Shown piece after piece: positions 2,457 to 15,370 of a stretch of 64,000 nucleotides of DNA (positions within the stretch are counted from its first letter, which is position 1; each line of letters begins with the position of its first letter). This DNA is from Escherichia coli. GTDB lineage: Bacteria > Pseudomonadota > Gammaproteobacteria > Enterobacterales > Enterobacteriaceae. Position numbers and translations under genes: made by a program. The stretch lies in the NCBI RefSeq assembly GCF_051903065.1, contig NZ_CP178438.1, one strand, 5' to 3'. Under the pieces are notes generated by a model. That model did not search any database. It had not been told where the DNA came from and saw nothing but the letters and a program-made list of their open reading frames with translations.

Positions 2457-3778
2457 CGCACGATAATATCGATATTCTGGTGGTGGATGATGACATTAGC
2501 CACTGCACTATTTTGCAGGCTTTACTGCGCGGCTGGGGCTATAACGTCGCGCTGGCGAACAGCGGGCGACAGGCGCTGGAGCAGGTGCGGGAACAGGTTT
2601 TTGATCTTGTGCTTTGCGATGTGCGAATGGCGGAGATGGACGGCATCGCCACGCTGAAAGAGATCAAAGCGTTAAACCCGGCAATTCCGGTGCTGATTAT
2701 GACTGCGTACTCCAGCGTCGAGACGGCGGTAGAGGCACTGAAAACTGGGGCGCTGGATTATCTCATCAAGCCGCTGGATTTCGATAACCTACAGGCGACG
2801 CTGGAAAAGGCGCTCGCGCATACGCACAGTATTGATGCTGAAACACCTGCGGTGACTGCCAGCCAGTTCGGTATGGTCGGTAAAAGCCCGGCGATGCAAC
2901 ACCTGCTCAGTGAAATCGCCCTCGTCGCGCCATCGGAAGCCACGGTGCTGATCCACGGCGATTCCGGCACCGGTAAAGAGCTGGTCGCCAGGGCGATTCA
3001 CGCCAGTAGCGCACGTAGCGAAAAACCGCTGGTAACGCTCAACTGTGCGGCACTTAACGAATCCTTGCTGGAATCTGAATTGTTCGGTCACGAAAAAGGG
3101 GCGTTTACCGGAGCCGATAAACGCCGGGAAGGGCGCTTTGTTGAGGCGGACGGCGGCACGCTGTTTCTCGATGAAATTGGCGATATCTCGCCGATGATGC
3201 AGGTGCGTCTGCTGCGTGCGATTCAGGAGCGCGAAGTTCAGCGTGTCGGTAGCAACCAGACTATCTCGGTTGATGTCCGGCTGATTGCGGCGACCCATCG
3301 CGATCTTGCCGCAGAGGTGAATGCCGGGCGTTTTCGCCAGGATCTCTACTATCGCCTGAATGTGGTGGCGATTGAAGTACCATCGCTGCGGCAACGGCGG
3401 GAAGATATCCCTCTGCTGGCTGGCCATTTTCTTCAGCGCTTTGCCGAGCGTAATCGCAAGGCGGTAAAAGGCTTTACGCCACAGGCGATGGATTTGCTGA
3501 TCCACTACGACTGGCCGGGAAATATTCGTGAACTGGAAAACGCGGTGGAACGGGCGGTGGTGCTGCTGACCGGGGAATATATTTCCGAACGCGAGCTGCC
3601 GCTGGCGATTGCCGGTACGCCGATCCCGCTGGGGCAAAGTCAGGATATTCAGCCGCTGGTGGAAGTCGAAAAAGAAGTGATTCTGGCGGCACTGGAGAAA
3701 ACGGGCGGCAACAAAACCGAAGCCGCCCGTCAGTTAGGGATCACGCGCAAAACGCTATTGGCAAAACTGTCGCGTTAG
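2453..3778 (+). CDS. zraR: Sigma-54-dependent response regulator ZraR
   Basis: 441-aa ORF with receiver domain (VDDD...D), AAA+ sigma-54 activator motifs (GESGTGKE-like [14 protein letters not shown]) and a C-terminal HTH. Confidence 0.92.
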
Positions 3779-5064
3779 TTCTGCTCGCGTTCGATAGCGC
3801 GCCAGCCGATATCTTTCCGGCAGAAGCAGTCGTCCCAGTGAATATCGGTCATTAAGGCATAAGCGCGTTTCTGCGCTTCTGCCACGGTATGACCCAGCGC
3901 GGTGACGCACAGTACGCGCCCGCCGCTGGTCACTACCTGCTCGTTATCCGCCAGTTTCGTGCCCGCGTGGAACACTTTGCCGTCAGCCACTTCTTCCAGC
4001 GGCAGGCCGTGGATCACATCGCCGGTGCGGTAATCGCCCGGATATCCACCCGCAGCCATCACCACGCCGAGAGAAGCACGTTCATCCCACTCTGACGTTT
4101 TCTCGTCCAGTTTGCCTTCACAGGCCGCCAGGCAGAGCTCAACCAGATCGGACTTCATGCGCAGCATAATCGGCTGGGTTTCCGGATCGCCAAAGCGGCA
4201 GTTAAATTCAATAACCTTCGGATTGCCCTGTTTGTCGATCATCAGGCCCGCGTAGAGAAAACCGGTGTAGGTGTTGCCTTCCGCCGCCATGCCTTTCACG
4301 GTTGGCCAGATAATACGTTCCATGGTGCGCTGATGAACTTCATCGGTTACTACCGGCGCGGGGGAGTAAGCGCCCATCCCGCCCGTGTTTGGTCCGGTAT
4401 CTTTATCGCCTACGCGTTTGTGATCCTGGCTGGTAGCCATCGGCAGCACATGCTCGCCGTCCACCATCACGATAAAGCTCGCTTCTTCGCCATCGAGGAA
4501 CTCTTCGATAACGATGCGATGACCCGCGTCGCCAAAAGCGTTGCCCGCCAGCATATCGTGAACAGCCGCTTCCGCTTCTTCCAGCGTCATCGCCACGATA
4601 ACGCCTTTCCCGGCAGCCAGACCGTCCGCTTTAATGACGATTGGCGCGCCTTTCTCACGCAGATACGCCAGCGCAGGTTCTACCTCGGTGAAGTTCTGGT
4701 ATTCCGCCGTAGGGATCTTATGGCGGGCCAGGAAATCTTTGGTAAACGCTTTTGAGCCTTCCAGTTGGGCCGCACCTGCGGTTGGGCCGAAGATTTTCAG
4801 CCCGGCAGCGCGGAAGGTATCGACCACGCCTTTCACCAGCGGCGCTTCCGGGCCGACGATGGTCAGATCAATCTTTTCGTTTTGTGCGAAATCCAACAGC
4901 GCCGGGATATCGGTCACGCCGATAGCAACGTTTTGCAGCGCGGGTTCCAGCGCAGTGCCTGCATTACCCGGAGCAACAAAAACAGTCTCAACCAGCGGCG
5001 ACTGGGCCGCTTTCCAGGCCAGCGCGTGCTCGCGCCCGCCGTTACCAATCACTAATACTTTCAT
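3775..5064 (-). CDS. purD: Phosphoribosylamine-glycine ligase PurD
   Basis: 429-aa ORF starting MKVLVIGNGGREHALAWK (ATP-grasp); its stop overlaps the zraR stop by 4 bp. Confidence 0.95.
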   Translation of the reverse strand: MKVLVIGNGGREHALAWKAAQSPLVETVFVAPGNAGTALEPALQNVAIGVTDIPALLDFAQNEKIDLTIVGPEAPLVKGVVDTFRAAGLKIFGPTAGAAQLEGSKAFTKDFLARHKIPTAEYQNFTEVEPALAYLREKGAPIVIKADGLAAGKGVIVAMTLEEAEAAVHDMLAGNAFGDAGHRIVIEEFLDGEEASFIVMVDGEHVLPMATSQDHKRVGDKDTGPNTGGMGAYSPAPVVTDEVHQRTMERIIWPTVKGMAAEGNTYTGFLYAGLMIDKQGNPKVIEFNCRFGDPETQPIMLRMKSDLVELCLAACEGKLDEKTSEWDERASLGVVMAAGGYPGDYRTGDVIHGLPLEEVADGKVFHAGTKLADNEQVVTSGGRVLCVTALGHTVAEAQKRAYALMTDIHWDDCFCRKDIGWRAIEREQN

Positions 5065-5075
5065 CTATTGCTCCA

Positions 5076-6665
5076 TTAATGGCGGAAGTGGCGCATGTCG
5101 GTGAAGAGCATCGCAATACCGTGCTCGTCGGCGGCGGCAATCACTTCGTCATCACGGATAGAACCGCCAGGCTGGATTACACAGGTCACGCCCGCAGCCG
5201 CGGCGGCATCAATACCGTCGCGGAACGGGAAGAACGCGTCAGAAGCCATCGAGGAACCTTTCACTTCCAGGCCTTCATCGGCAGCTTTAATACCGGCGAT
5301 TTTCGCGGAGTACACGCGGCTCATCTGGCCCGCGCCAATACCGATGGTCATATTGTTTTTGGCATAGACGATAGCATTGGATTTCACGAACTTCGCCACT
5401 TTCCAGCAGAACAGCGCATCACGCAGTTCCTGTTCGGTCGGCTGACGTTGGGTGACGACGCGCAGTTCTTCCGCACCGACCATCCCCAGGTCACGATCCT
5501 GAACCAGCAGACCGCCGTTCACGCGTTTGAAATCAAGACCCGGAACACGCTCGCCCCACTGACCGCAGGTCAGAACGCGTACGTTCTGCTTGGCGGCGGT
5601 GATTTTCAGGGCTTCTTCGCTGGCGGAAGGCGCAATAATCACTTCGACAAACTGACGAGAAATGATGGCCTGTGCGGTTTCCGCATCCAGCTCGCGGTTA
5701 AAGGCAATGATGCCGCCGAATGCGGAGGTTGGGTCGGTTTTGTACGCGCGATCGTAAGCATCAAGAATGGAATTGCCGATAGCCACGCCGCAAGGGTTGG
5801 CGTGCTTCACAATCACACATGCCGGCTCGGCGAACTCTTTCACGCACTCCAGCGCCGCATCGGTATCGGCGATGTTGTTATAAGAGAGGGCTTTACCCTG
5901 AACCTGGGTTGCAGTGGCAACGGAGGCTTCTTTCACATTCTCTTCTATATAGAAGGCAGCCTGCTGGTGGCTGTTCTCGCCGTAACGCATATCCTGCTTC
6001 TTAATGAAGTTCAGGTTCAGCGTGCGTGGGAAGCGACCGGCGGCTTCTTTGCTTTCACCGTGGTAAGCCGGAACCATGCTGCCGAAGTAGTTGGCAATCA
6101 TGCTGTCGTAGGCGGCAGTGTGTTCGAAGGCTTTGATGGCGAGGTCGAAACGGGTTGCAAGCGTCAGCGATCCTTCGTTGTCATCCATCTCTTTAATAAT
6201 TGCGTCGTAGTCGCTGCTCTTCACCACGATTGCGACATCTTTATGGTTCTTGGCGGCGGAGCGCACCATCGTTGGGCCGCCGATATCGATGTTCTCAACC
6301 GCATCTTCCAGCGAGCAACCTTCACGGGCCACGGTCTGGGCGAACGGATACAGGTTAACAACCACCATATCGATAGGCTGGATCTGATGTTCTTCCATAA
6401 TGGCATCGTCCTGGCCGCGACGGCCCAGAATGCCACCATGTACTTTCGGATGCAGGGTCTTCACGCGTCCATCCATCATCTCCGGGAAACCGGTGTAATC
6501 GGAAACTTCGGTTACCGGCAGACCTTTTTCTGCTAACAGACGGGCAGTGCCCCCTGTAGACAGCAGCTCCACACCGCGTGCGGAAAGTGCCTGGGCGAAT
6601 TCGACGATACCGGCTTTGTCAGAAACACTGAGCAGAGCGCGGCGGACTGGACGACGTTGTTGCAT
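5076..6665 (-). CDS. purH: Bifunctional AICAR transformylase / IMP cyclohydrolase PurH
   Basis: The 547-aa ORF contains the PurH sequence from the internal Met [27 protein letters not shown]; start placed at that Met (CAT at 6663-6665), giving 529 aa. Confidence 0.93.
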
Positions 6666-6939
6666 GGTAAATCCCCTGGATTTGACTATTACAGAGAGCG
6701 TTAGCTGAATTTTTCGCAAAAAACTCAGCTAACGCCCCTAACGGGGCATCCTTATTTTTTGCCCGCATTGTAACGAAAACGTTTGCGCAACGCTCGCGAA
6801 TTTTTTAATTCGATGGCGATCACGATTTTGCCCCCGATTAGCGTGGGAGAAATAGAGAAATAACGCTGATGATTGTGGATAACTCTGTGCGTAAAAAGGT
6901 ATAAAGCGGGGTTTTGCTGGGGAATGCAGCAGTCAGTCA

Positions 6940-6990
6940 TTTTTCTGCAATTTTTCTATTGCGGCCTGCGGAGAACTCCCTATAATGCGC
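6940..6990 (+). promoter_or_regulatory. rrnE P1 promoter with upstream AT-rich UP element
   Basis: -10 TATAAT at 6981-6986, a putative -35 TTGCGG 16 bp upstream, and an AT-rich tract (tcatttttctgcaatttttctatt) just upstream. Confidence 0.65.
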
Positions 6991-7068
6991 CTCCATCGAC
7001 ACGGCGGATGTGAATCACTTCACACAAACAGCCGGTTCGGTTGAAGAGAAAAATTCTGAAATTCAGGG

Positions 7069-7096
7069 TTGACTCTGAAAGAGGAAAGCGTAATAT
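7069..7096 (+). promoter_or_regulatory. rrnE P2 promoter
   Basis: -35 TTGACT at 7069-7074 and -10 TAATAT at 7091-7096. Confidence 0.65.
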
Positions 7097-7136
7097 ACGC
7101 CACCTCGCGACAGTGAGCTGAAAGCCGCGTCGCAAC

Positions 7137-7149
7137 TGCTCTTTAACAA
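7137..7149 (+). promoter_or_regulatory. rrn antitermination boxA in the leader
   Basis: TGCTCTTTAACAA matches the rrn boxA consensus, located between P2 and the 16S gene. Confidence 0.8.
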
Positions 7150-7280
7150 TTTATCAGACAATCTGTGTGGGCACTCGAAGATACGGATTCTTAACGTCGC
7201 AAGACGAAAAATGAATACCAAGTCTCAAGAGTGAACACGTAATTCATTACGAAGTTTAATTCTTTGAGCATCAAACTTTT

Positions 7281-8822
<1,542 letters not shown>

Positions 8823-8907
8823 CCTTAAAGAAGCGTACTTTGCAGTGCTCACACAGATTGTCTGATAGAAAGTGAAAAGCAAGGCGTCTTGCGAAGCAGA
8901 CTGATAC

Positions 8908-8983
8908 GTCCCCTTCGTCTAGAGGCCCAGGACACCGCCCTTTCACGGCGGTAACAGGGGTTCGAATCCCCTAGGGGACGCCA
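8908..8983 (+). tRNA. gltV: tRNA-Glu (UUC) in the 16S-23S spacer
   Basis: GTCCCCTTCGTCTAGAGGCCCAGGACACCGCCCTTTCACGGCGGTAACAGGGGTTCGAATCCCCTAGGGGACGCCA, 76 nt with encoded CCA. Confidence 0.97.
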
Positions 8984-9176
8984 CTTGCTGGTTTGTGAGT
9001 GAAAGTCGCCGACCTTAATATCTCAAAACTCATCTTCGGGTGATGTTTGAGATATTTGCTCTTTAAAAATCTGGATCAAGCTGAAAATTGAAACACTGAA
9101 CAACGAAAGTTGTTCGTGAGTCTCTCAAATTTTCGCAACACGATGATGAATCGAAAGAAACATCTTCGGGTTGTGA

Positions 9177-12079
<2,903 letters not shown>

Positions 12080-12172
12080 ACAACGCCGAAGCTGTTTTGG
12101 CGGATTGAGAGAAGATTTTCAGCCTGATACAGATTAAATCAGAACGCAGAAGCGGTCTGATAAAACAGAATT

Positions 12173-12292
12173 TGCCTGGCGGCCGTAGCGCGGTGGTCCC
12201 ACCTGACCCCATGCCGAACTCAGAAGTGAAACGCCGTAGCGCCGATGGTAGTGTGGGGTCTCCCCATGCGAGAGTAGGGAACTGCCAGGCAT
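12173..12292 (+). rRNA. rrfE: 5S ribosomal RNA (rrfE)
   Basis: TGCCTGGCGGCCGTAGCGCGGTGGTCCCACCTGACCCCATGCCGAACTCAG ... GGGAACTGCCAGGCAT; 120 nt. Confidence 0.98.
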
Positions 12293-12299
12293 CAAATAA

Positions 12300-12335
12300 A
12301 GCGAAAGGCCATCCTGACGGATGGCCTTTTTGCGT
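12300..12335 (+). terminator. rrn operon rho-independent terminator
   Basis: Hairpin aaggccatcctgacggatggcctt followed by tttt, immediately after the 5S gene. Confidence 0.85.
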
Positions 12336-12371
12336 TGGTGAAAAAAATGCCGGATGCGACGCTGGTGAACA

Positions 12372-13120
<749 letters not shown>

Positions 13121-13224
13121 ATCAGCATACTTGTCCTTAGCCTTCTGCAGTGACAGCTGGTAGTACAGCGTGCTTCTGGCCAGCCCTGCAGCCTTTAACA
13201 GGTCAGACTGGCAGTGTCCGCACT

Positions 13225-13746
13225 TCAGGTTCTGGATGACTTTCGTTTTTTCTCCAGCTCCTGGCGCTTTTTTTCCAGGAGATGCTCCTGCATGGCTTTC
13301 AGATATGCATTTTCTGCGCGAAGATAACGCAGCTCATTCTTCATCTCTTCCGGCGTCATGTTTGCCTCGTTTTCATGGGTATCATCAGAACGGGTCATGC
13401 TTTTCTCCTTCCTGCGCCTGATAAAGGCCTCATTACCAGATTTGCGGTAGCCTTTTATCCAGTTTTTAACCATGTTGTGGCTGGGAATGTTAAACCGGGC
13501 AGCTACCCGGGGTAGAGACTCAGAATGCCCGAGAGCATAAAGAACCACGCAAAGTTTATCTTCAGGAGAATAGCTACGCTTGTGTCTGCAATCCAGTGCC
13601 TGAGGACCGTGAAGAAGAAAAAGATTAATCCAGTGTGAGAGGCTGGTGTGAGAAAGTTGAAAGAGTTTTGCCGTAGAAATGATGCCTGCATGACCGGCCA
13701 GGTAATGATTTACAGCGGCAAGTTTTACTTCAAATGAATGTTTCAT
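13225..13746 (-). CDS. insJ: IS150 OrfA (InsJ), HTH DNA-binding protein
   Basis: Product MKHSFEVKLAAVNHYLAGHAGIISTAKLFQLSHTSLSHWINLF... matches IS150 InsJ as I recall it; a leucine-zipper-like C-terminus is typical of IS3 OrfA. Confidence 0.88.
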   Translation of the reverse strand: MKHSFEVKLAAVNHYLAGHAGIISTAKLFQLSHTSLSHWINLFLLHGPQALDCRHKRSYSPEDKLCVVLYALGHSESLPRVAARFNIPSHNMVKNWIKGYRKSGNEAFIRRRKEKSMTRSDDTHENEANMTPEEMKNELRYLRAENAYLKAMQEHLLEKKRQELEKKRKSSRT

Positions 13747-13840
13747 AAACTGCACCTTCAGATGTCAGATTATGTCCAACATTTGGGGTGCAGTTCATGG
13801 CGCGTTTTATCCAGCTTACGCAGGCACGATAGGGGGCAGC

Positions 13841-14440: not shown

Positions 14441-15370
14441 ATGCCGATTCGTGTGCCGGACGAGCTACCCGCCGTCAATTTCTTGCGTGAAGAAAACGTT
14501 TTTGTGATGACAACTTCTCGTGCGTCTGGTCAGGAAATTCGTCCACTTAAGGTTCTGATCCTTAACCTGATGCCGAAGAAGATCGAAACTGAAAATCAGT
14601 TTCTGCGCCTGCTTTCAAACTCACCTTTGCAGGTCGATATTCAGCTGTTGCGCATCGATTCCCGTGAATCGCGCAACACGCCCGCAGAGCATCTGAACAA
14701 CTTCTACTGTAACTTTGAAGATATTCAGGAACAAAACTTTGACGGTCTGATAGTTACCGGTGCGCCGCTGGGTCTGGTGGAGTTTAATGATGTCGCTTAC
14801 TGGCCGCAGATCAAACAGGTGCTGGAGTGGTCGAAAGATCACGTCACCTCGACGCTGTTTGTCTGTTGGGCGGTCCAGGCCGCGCTCAATATCCTCTACG
14901 GCATTCCTAAGCAAACCCGCACCGACAAACTCTCTGGCGTTTACGAGCATCACATTCTCCATCCTCATGCGCTTCTGACGCGTGGCTTTGATGATTCATT
15001 CCTGGCACCGCATTCGCGCTATGCTGACTTTCCGGCAGCGTTGATTCGTGATTATACCGATCTGGAAATTCTGGCAGAGACGGAAGAAGGGGATGCATAT
15101 CTGTTTGCCAGTAAAGATAAGCGCATTGCCTTTGTGACGGGCCATCCCGAATATGATGCGCAAACGCTGGCGCAGGAATTTTTCCGCGATGTGGAAGCCG
15201 GACTAGACCCGGATGTACCGTATAACTATTTCCCGCACAATGATCCGCAAAATACACCGCGAGCGAGCTGGCGTAGTCACGGTAATTTACTGTTTACCAA
15301 CTGGCTCAACTATTACGTCTACCAGATCACGCCATACGATCTACGGCACATGAATCCAACGCTGGATTAA
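14441..15370 (+). CDS. metA: Homoserine O-succinyltransferase MetA
   Basis: 309-aa ORF starting [28 protein letters not shown]. Confidence 0.95.

Follow-up and report, generated by a model that had tools for sequence, protein, structure and literature searches.

The closest described counterparts of the region analysed here are found in Escherichia coli K-12, where the rrnE promoter was reported to be the strongest of the seven rrn promoters under all conditions tested, the one most reduced in a fis mutant, and the one with the most Fis sites within 500 bp upstream of its 16S gene (PMC4696680). In the text of that study, Ile/Ala is the spacer assigned to rrnE and Glu the one assigned to rrnD; the MG1655 RefSeq annotation has them the other way round, and we treated this as a D/E swap, a slip in the text that could mislead checks of rrnE identity. 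For the divergent purHD operon, the exact purH-purD motif obtained by ChIP-chip of PurR is GCGCAAACGTTTTCGT, and this operator was listed as bound in vivo with adenine present (PMC3159470). The K-12 intergenic region also contains a double DnaA box that gave a 124-fold DnaA ChIP-seq peak, published in 2024 as "upstream of purH", and DnaA binding to it was validated by mutagenesis and ChIP-qPCR (PMC11317965). Regulation of purH by DnaA was those authors' inference from binding, made without a readout of purH or rrnE transcription (PMC11317965), and rrnE and DnaA boxes are mentioned together only incidentally in PMC12000880 and PMC11724364.

In a 64,000-nucleotide stretch of E. coli DNA (hereafter the window), we examined positions 6666-7280, which almost certainly represent the divergent intergenic region between purHD and rrnE of the E. 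coli chromosome, with the right two-thirds being the rrnE control region. On the left lies purH (5076..6665, minus strand, ATG at 6665), identified as full-length PurH by its translation and by the RefSeq annotation of matching genomes, with purD (3775-5064, minus strand) downstream of it. On the right, the plus strand carries a transcribed operon (7281..12331) of 16S (7281-8822), tRNA-Glu(UUC) (8908-8983), 23S (9177-12079) and a single 5S (12175-12290), the rRNA genes being located with Rfam and the tRNA, the sole one of the operon, with ARAGORN; a directly read terminator hairpin with a T-run follows at 12304-12331, and a distal tRNA is absent. The resulting gene order, zraR-purD-purH, then 16S-tRNA-Glu-23S-5S, then yjaB-metA, is that of K-12 rrnE, for which the MG1655 record has zraR, purD, purH, rrsE, gltV, rrlE and rrfE in order, and the downstream flank of yjaB, metA and aceBAK matches K-12 rrnE as well. 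When positions 6300-7400 were used as a megablast query, the purH/16S junction was present in 5,408 of 5,426 complete E. coli genomes, and RefSeq annotates the adjoining gene as purH in the 5,408 genomes that cover the query.

The downstream flank has several features of its own. The phylogrouping marker yjaA is missing from it, which is the case in many strains. Immediately past the rrnE terminator, an IS1397 element of the IS3 family (12366-13797) interrupts the loop of a REP palindromic unit, bounded by the target duplication TGG at 12363-12365 and 13798-13800; only 3 of the 5,426 complete genomes have this insertion in common. In the closest strain record, NZ_AP045789.1 (segment 8352-11314), the aceK-iclR interval contains an espL4 type III effector gene interrupted by IS1A, the segment corresponding to roughly positions 20,500-23,500 of the window.

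The sequence-only reading had assigned the operon to rrnE on the basis of its proximity to purH and its tRNA-Glu-only spacer. The first of these grounds stood, as the gene at 5076-6665 (minus strand) translates to a complete PurH, whereas the second did not serve as a criterion, although the spacer tRNA was indeed Glu(UUC) and not an Ile/Ala pair. A tRNA-Glu-only spacer is common to K-12 rrnB, rrnC, rrnE and rrnG, and the spacer therefore excludes rrnA, rrnD and rrnH but cannot single out rrnE. Likewise, the succession of 16S, tRNA-Glu, 23S and single 5S with no distal tRNA is also found in rrnB and rrnG, and is necessary for rrnE but insufficient. Over longer evolutionary distances the spacer type is not tied to the locus at all, since the purH-adjacent operon of Leclercia has an Ile/Ala spacer. 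When the control regions of all seven K-12 rrn operons were aligned with the window, the P1 -35 element TTGCGG and the sequence upstream of it matched rrnE only, so that the control region itself is of the rrnE type, beyond its flanks. The diagnosis thus rests on the flanks together with TTGCGG and its upstream sequence, rather than on the spacer. The alignment to K-12 rrnE that had been proposed as a check extended over 661 nt at 98% identity, and P1, P2, boxA, boxC and the leader as far as the start of 16S are, apart from the boxB loop region, base-identical to K-12 rrnE.

The core of rrnE P1 (6959..6995, plus strand) was read directly and is identical to that of K-12 rrnE. It comprises the -35 element TTGCGG at 6959-6964, a 16-nt spacer, the -10 element TATAAT at 6981-6986, which both direct reading and a scripted check found where the sequence-only reading had placed it (6981), and a GCGCC discriminator (GCGCCTCC). 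By alignment with P1 of rrnB and rrnD, +1 would be the A at 6995. The AT-rich tract previously noticed upstream of P1 was borne out by composition, with AGTCATTTTTCTGCAATTTTTCT (6935..6957, plus strand, -60 to -38) being 74% A+T compared to 48.6% for the window; the tract aligns with the UP elements of other rrn P1 promoters and, by analogy with rrnB P1, would function as one. Further upstream, the 15-mer GCTGGGGAATGCAGC (6916..6930, plus strand, centre -72), which has the G-N13-C form, aligns with Fis site I of rrnB P1 and is nearly invariant across genera, and it is probably Fis site I in the window. Its centre agrees with the position reportedly described by Aiyar et al. 2002. We also scanned 6780-6965 with the degenerate Fis consensus GNNYRWWWWWYRNNC at a threshold of at least 8 of 11 matches, which returned sites at -117, -170 and -207, the first of them being the DnaA box; the scan was discarded as uninformative because it failed to recover the conserved site at -72.

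By analogy with rrnB P1, a promoter that combines a weak -35 element (TTGCGG), a consensus -10 element and a G+C-rich discriminator would be expected to form a short-lived open complex due to the discriminator, and, for that reason, to respond to both ppGpp/DksA and the initiating NTP. P1 would be boosted by contacts between the A+T-rich UP element and the alpha subunit's C-terminal domain in RNA polymerase, as well as by upstream-bound Fis, whose site I would be centred at -72, and would be the target of growth-rate and stringent control, while P2, 110 bp downstream, would supply basal transcription. We infer this mechanism, along with the start sites, factor binding and regulation, from the sequence and from the literature on rrnB and rrnE.

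The core of rrnE P2 (7069..7096, plus strand) was the only site returned by a generic promoter scan. It has a -35 element TTGACT (7069-7074), a 16-nt spacer and a -10 element TAATAT (7091-7096), and the -10 hexamers of P1 and P2 are 110 bp apart, in agreement with the distance of about 110 bp given in the sequence-only reading. The 28-mer of P2 is identical in 24 of 38 purH-adjacent operons of other genera. Downstream of P2, a boxB-type hairpin (7107..7133, plus strand) folds with -13.5 kcal/mol, a z-score of only -1.25, and has an outer stem that covaries across genera. The boxA expected ahead of the 16S gene is present as an exact match (TGCTCTTTAACAA, 7137..7149, plus strand), 131 nt before position 7281, and is invariant in all seven K-12 operons; a boxA-like copy with one mismatch (9057-9069, plus strand) lies in the 16S-23S spacer, at the known position of boxA ahead of 23S. 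Equally invariant in the seven operons is the directly read boxC-like element TGTGTGGG (7164..7171, plus strand), which we take to lie around the 5' strand of the stem at which RNase III processes 16S. Judging from the identity to K-12, the leader boxA would recruit NusB/NusE and other antitermination factors, allowing the polymerase to read through the untranslated operon, and pairing of the boxC region with sequence on the far side of the 16S gene would create the RNase III stem from which pre-16S is released. Two Rfam families described as 'sRNA' cover ordinary parts of the rrn operon here, namely StyR-44, which matches 9061-9169 in the spacer just before the 23S gene above its threshold, and Ysr197, which covers P1, P2 and the leader (6926-7159) with a sub-threshold score of 117 bits (gathering score 167).

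Left undescribed in the sequence-only reading, the stretch 6720-6960 (the leftmost 240 bp of the span given for the control region) harbours the promoter of purHD and its operator for PurR, as well as a variable linker and a double DnaA box. The purHD promoter core (6767..6788, minus strand) consists of the -10-like hexamer TACAAT (6772..6767), near which purHD transcription would start, and the 16-bp PurR operator GCGCAAACGTTTTCGT (6788..6773, minus strand), which departs from the PurR consensus at a single position. Across genera, the operator is kept along with TACAAT/TAAAAT, and a 20-mer containing the operator is conserved in 84 species-representative genomes. A second PurR-like match, at 14490-14505 inside metA, was within chance expectation and was dropped.

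The 5' leader of purH contains a perfect 20-bp hairpin (6695..6738, minus strand), overlapping the left edge of the 6720-7280 span and preceded by a smaller GC hairpin (6734-6747, minus strand). The 106-nt leader (6660-6765, minus strand) has a minimum free energy of -41 kcal/mol (z = -5.3), and none of 200 shuffled sequences was as stable. Comparison of 77 distinct enterobacterial leaders shows the hairpin to be conserved and some of the changes in it to be compensatory; for instance, one stem position is occupied by 40 C-G, 10 G-C and 6 A-U pairs versus 21 mismatches, and insertions in the loop of six taxa lengthen the stem. No Rfam family covering the hairpin was found in an Rfam search that included a permissive search of 6600-7300, the latter returning only two sub-threshold matches, Ysr197 and mir-725, of which the mir-725 match is an artefact of the purH hairpin. 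A study of RNase III lists a site on the side of the rrnE transcript only, with none in the purH leader (PMC5371410). On the plus strand, terminator-like sites occur at 6734-6747 and 6781-6801, and the former was set aside as a terminator since the T-run after the hairpin is not conserved across genera. The purH leader hairpin is a conserved and uncatalogued element that we consider a side point with research value.

Between the control regions of purHD and rrnE is a 62-bp linker (6806..6867) that is dimorphic in E. coli. It differs from K-12 at 18 of its 62 positions (29%), compared with a background divergence from K-12 of ~1.4% (1.2-1.6% for zraR, purD, purH and the rest of the intergenic region). 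The window-type linker was found in approximately 317 complete E. coli genomes (~6%), O157:H7 included, and the K-12-type linker, 81-83% identical over the 96-nt query, in approximately 5,100. The K-12-type linker is 87-94% identical to those of E. albertii, E. whittamii and another Escherichia species, whereas identity to these linkers is no more than 68-76% for the window type, which diverges from K-12 more than the E. albertii linker does. Among 84 enterobacterial loci searched for a possible donor of the window-type linker, the highest identity outside Escherichia did not exceed 61%. Between genera, the segment from the operator to 6873 is hypervariable, and it is absent in Enterobacter-type genera; a hypervariable segment between two conserved control regions indicates that the dimorphic block of E. 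coli is an unconstrained linker. The existence of two very different linker haplotypes beside a DnaA box in E. coli is a further side point with research value.

Conservation of the control region beyond E. coli was determined by a scan of a genome collection anchored on the PurR operator, which yielded 84 enterobacterial loci, most of them at contig ends, as expected beside an rrn repeat. In every locus that was long enough, the P1 core TATAATGCGCC followed the operator at ~155 bp or ~209-230 bp, and the arrangement from operator to P1 was conserved in 72 enterobacterial loci. The sequence is near-invariant from 6873 (-122) to +11, the exceptions being the proximal UP subsite and the spacer's upstream half. 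The left edge of this block is formed by TGTGGATAA, corresponding to the DnaA consensus TTATCCACA read on the opposite strand, and the double DnaA box (6874..6894, minus strand, -121 to -101 from the P1 start) marks the exact distal edge of the conserved sequence upstream of P1. It consists of box 1, the consensus TTATCCACA (6882..6874, minus strand), a 3-bp gag spacer, and box 2, TTACGCACA (6894..6886, minus strand), with 7 of 9 matches to the consensus. Box 1 is the only consensus DnaA box in the 64-kb window, and none of the remaining six rrn operons of K-12 has such a box upstream. As the identical K-12 sequence is bound, DnaA would be expected to occupy the double box of the window in vivo. 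Across loci, box 1 is perfect in 73 of 73 and box 2 keeps 6-7 of 9 matches at the 3-bp spacing, and in 71 of 72 enterobacterial loci 107 bp separate the start of box 1 from the -10 element of rrnE P1. The gap between the DnaA box and the PurR operator takes values of 31-33, 85-86, 94-97, 107 and 127 bp across genera, so that the distance from the box to purHD varies by 54-96 bp. These steps correspond to approximately 5, 6, 7 and 9 turns of the helix, in about four independent classes, which is only suggestive of a preserved rotational setting of the DnaA box relative to purHD.

We considered whether the promoter-like hexamers and boxA could be chance matches with no promoter function. A single consensus-type promoter match per 700 bp, such as the one for P2, is at the level of shuffled sequence (1 found versus 1.2 expected), and the real support for P2 is therefore its identity to P2 of K-12 rrnE, rrnH and rrnD. 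However, the composite P1 pattern has one match in 64 kb against 0.01 expected by chance, and boxA, with one mismatch allowed, has two against 0.09; in addition, the region is base-identical to the experimentally characterised K-12 rrnE and near-invariant over more than 20 genera. Chance was already refuted by this conservation and identity and retains a negligible probability. A different question is whether the control region is chimeric, with P1 being rrnE-proper and the part from P2 through the leader having been homogenised with rrnD or rrnH by gene conversion. The stretch comprising the P1-P2 spacer, P2 and boxB falls into two classes among the seven K-12 operons, A/B/C/G versus D/E/H. 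With the K-12 operons as reference, the boxB stretch of the window (7104-7133) is identical to that of rrnD and rrnH, unlike that of rrnE, and the P1-P2 spacer and P2 are common to K-12 rrnE and rrnH, a pattern that suggests homogenisation of leaders between operons in one lineage or the other. However, in other genera either version of boxB is found in operons adjacent to purH, so the converted operon may be that of K-12. Conversion of the window's leader is possible but doubtful and, if true, would leave the locus identity and the working of the control region unaltered.

A further alternative concerns the double DnaA box, which may be functionally part of the upstream region of rrnE P1, or may serve both divergent promoters, rather than act on purH only. 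The constant 107 bp to the P1 -10 element and the abrupt start of conservation at the box point in this direction, as do the range of 31 to 127 bp in its distance to the purHD operator across genera and its occurrence at rrnE alone among the K-12 rrn operons. It is also relevant that the published work provides binding without a transcription test of either promoter (PMC11317965), and that, of the rrn promoters, the one of rrnE reportedly depends most on Fis, which binds across the 500 bp upstream (PMC4696680). However, the fixed distance may merely reflect the constraint that Fis and the UP element impose on -122 to +1, the differences of ~5, 6, 7 and 9 helical turns fit an action on purHD that depends on the face of the helix, and the box is possibly a titration site with no role in transcription. 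In rrnB P1, moreover, sites upstream of Fis site I contribute little. On balance, we consider a functional link of the box to rrnE unlikely, and the stronger statement that the double box is an integral part, of ancient origin, of the region upstream of rrnE P1 more doubtful still. Were the link to rrnE real, DnaA occupancy would modulate how Fis and the UP element activate the strongest rRNA promoter; were the box such an integral component, DnaA would modulate Fis-dependent activation of rrnE or would use a Fis-rich, highly supercoiled region in a DARS-like manner, providing a direct link from the state of the replication initiator to ribosome synthesis. The regulatory target of the double DnaA box is, in our view, the only lead from this region with some research value.

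The reading we prefer for the region as a whole is that of an ordinary and well-studied control region, already known for E. coli rrnE, and none of the results spoke against this identification. As such, the finding is textbook knowledge with no addition to the understanding of rRNA regulation, and its value is mainly that of an annotation anchor. It confirms the window as a segment of the E. coli chromosome at ~90.5 min, and demonstrates that an rrn control region can be annotated correctly from sequence alone.

Compared with known systems, the rrn locus of the window is closest to K-12 MG1655 rrnE (rrsE-gltV-rrlE-rrfE), with which it shares the flanking genes and the order of RNA genes. It differs from K-12 rrnE in the far-upstream linker (18 of 62 bases at 6806-6867), in the boxB loop region (7116-7125), which is 2 nt longer, and by single bases at 6911 and 7055, the latter upstream of the P2 -35 element, and farther downstream by having no yjaA and by the IS1397 after the 5S gene. 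Due to the differences in the linker, at 6911 and 7055 and in the boxB loop, its quantitative behaviour could differ from that of K-12. The control region resembles rrnB P1/P2 in having an UP element, a probable Fis site I at approximately -71/-72, a 16-nt spacer, TATAAT, a GCGCC discriminator, a P2 about 110-120 bp downstream, the succession boxB-boxA-boxC and a tRNA-Glu spacer. Unlike the window, rrnB has a -35 element TTGTCA, a P1-P2 spacer and P2 of the A/B/C/G class (TATTAT -10), and no DnaA box upstream. The purHD operator has nothing unusual relative to the other operators of the pur regulon, which are likewise 16-bp palindromic boxes beside the -10 element of a purine biosynthesis operon, and its intergenic region is shared with an rRNA promoter. 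Finally, the double DnaA boxes at polA, DARS2 and nrdA likewise combine the consensus TTATCCACA with a degenerate 9-mer 3 bp away, and the ChIP signal of the K-12 purH/rrnE site was equal to that of polA (PMC11317965). Unlike those boxes, however, the one described here is flanked by two divergently oriented promoters and falls within the Fis-rich sequence upstream of an rRNA promoter.
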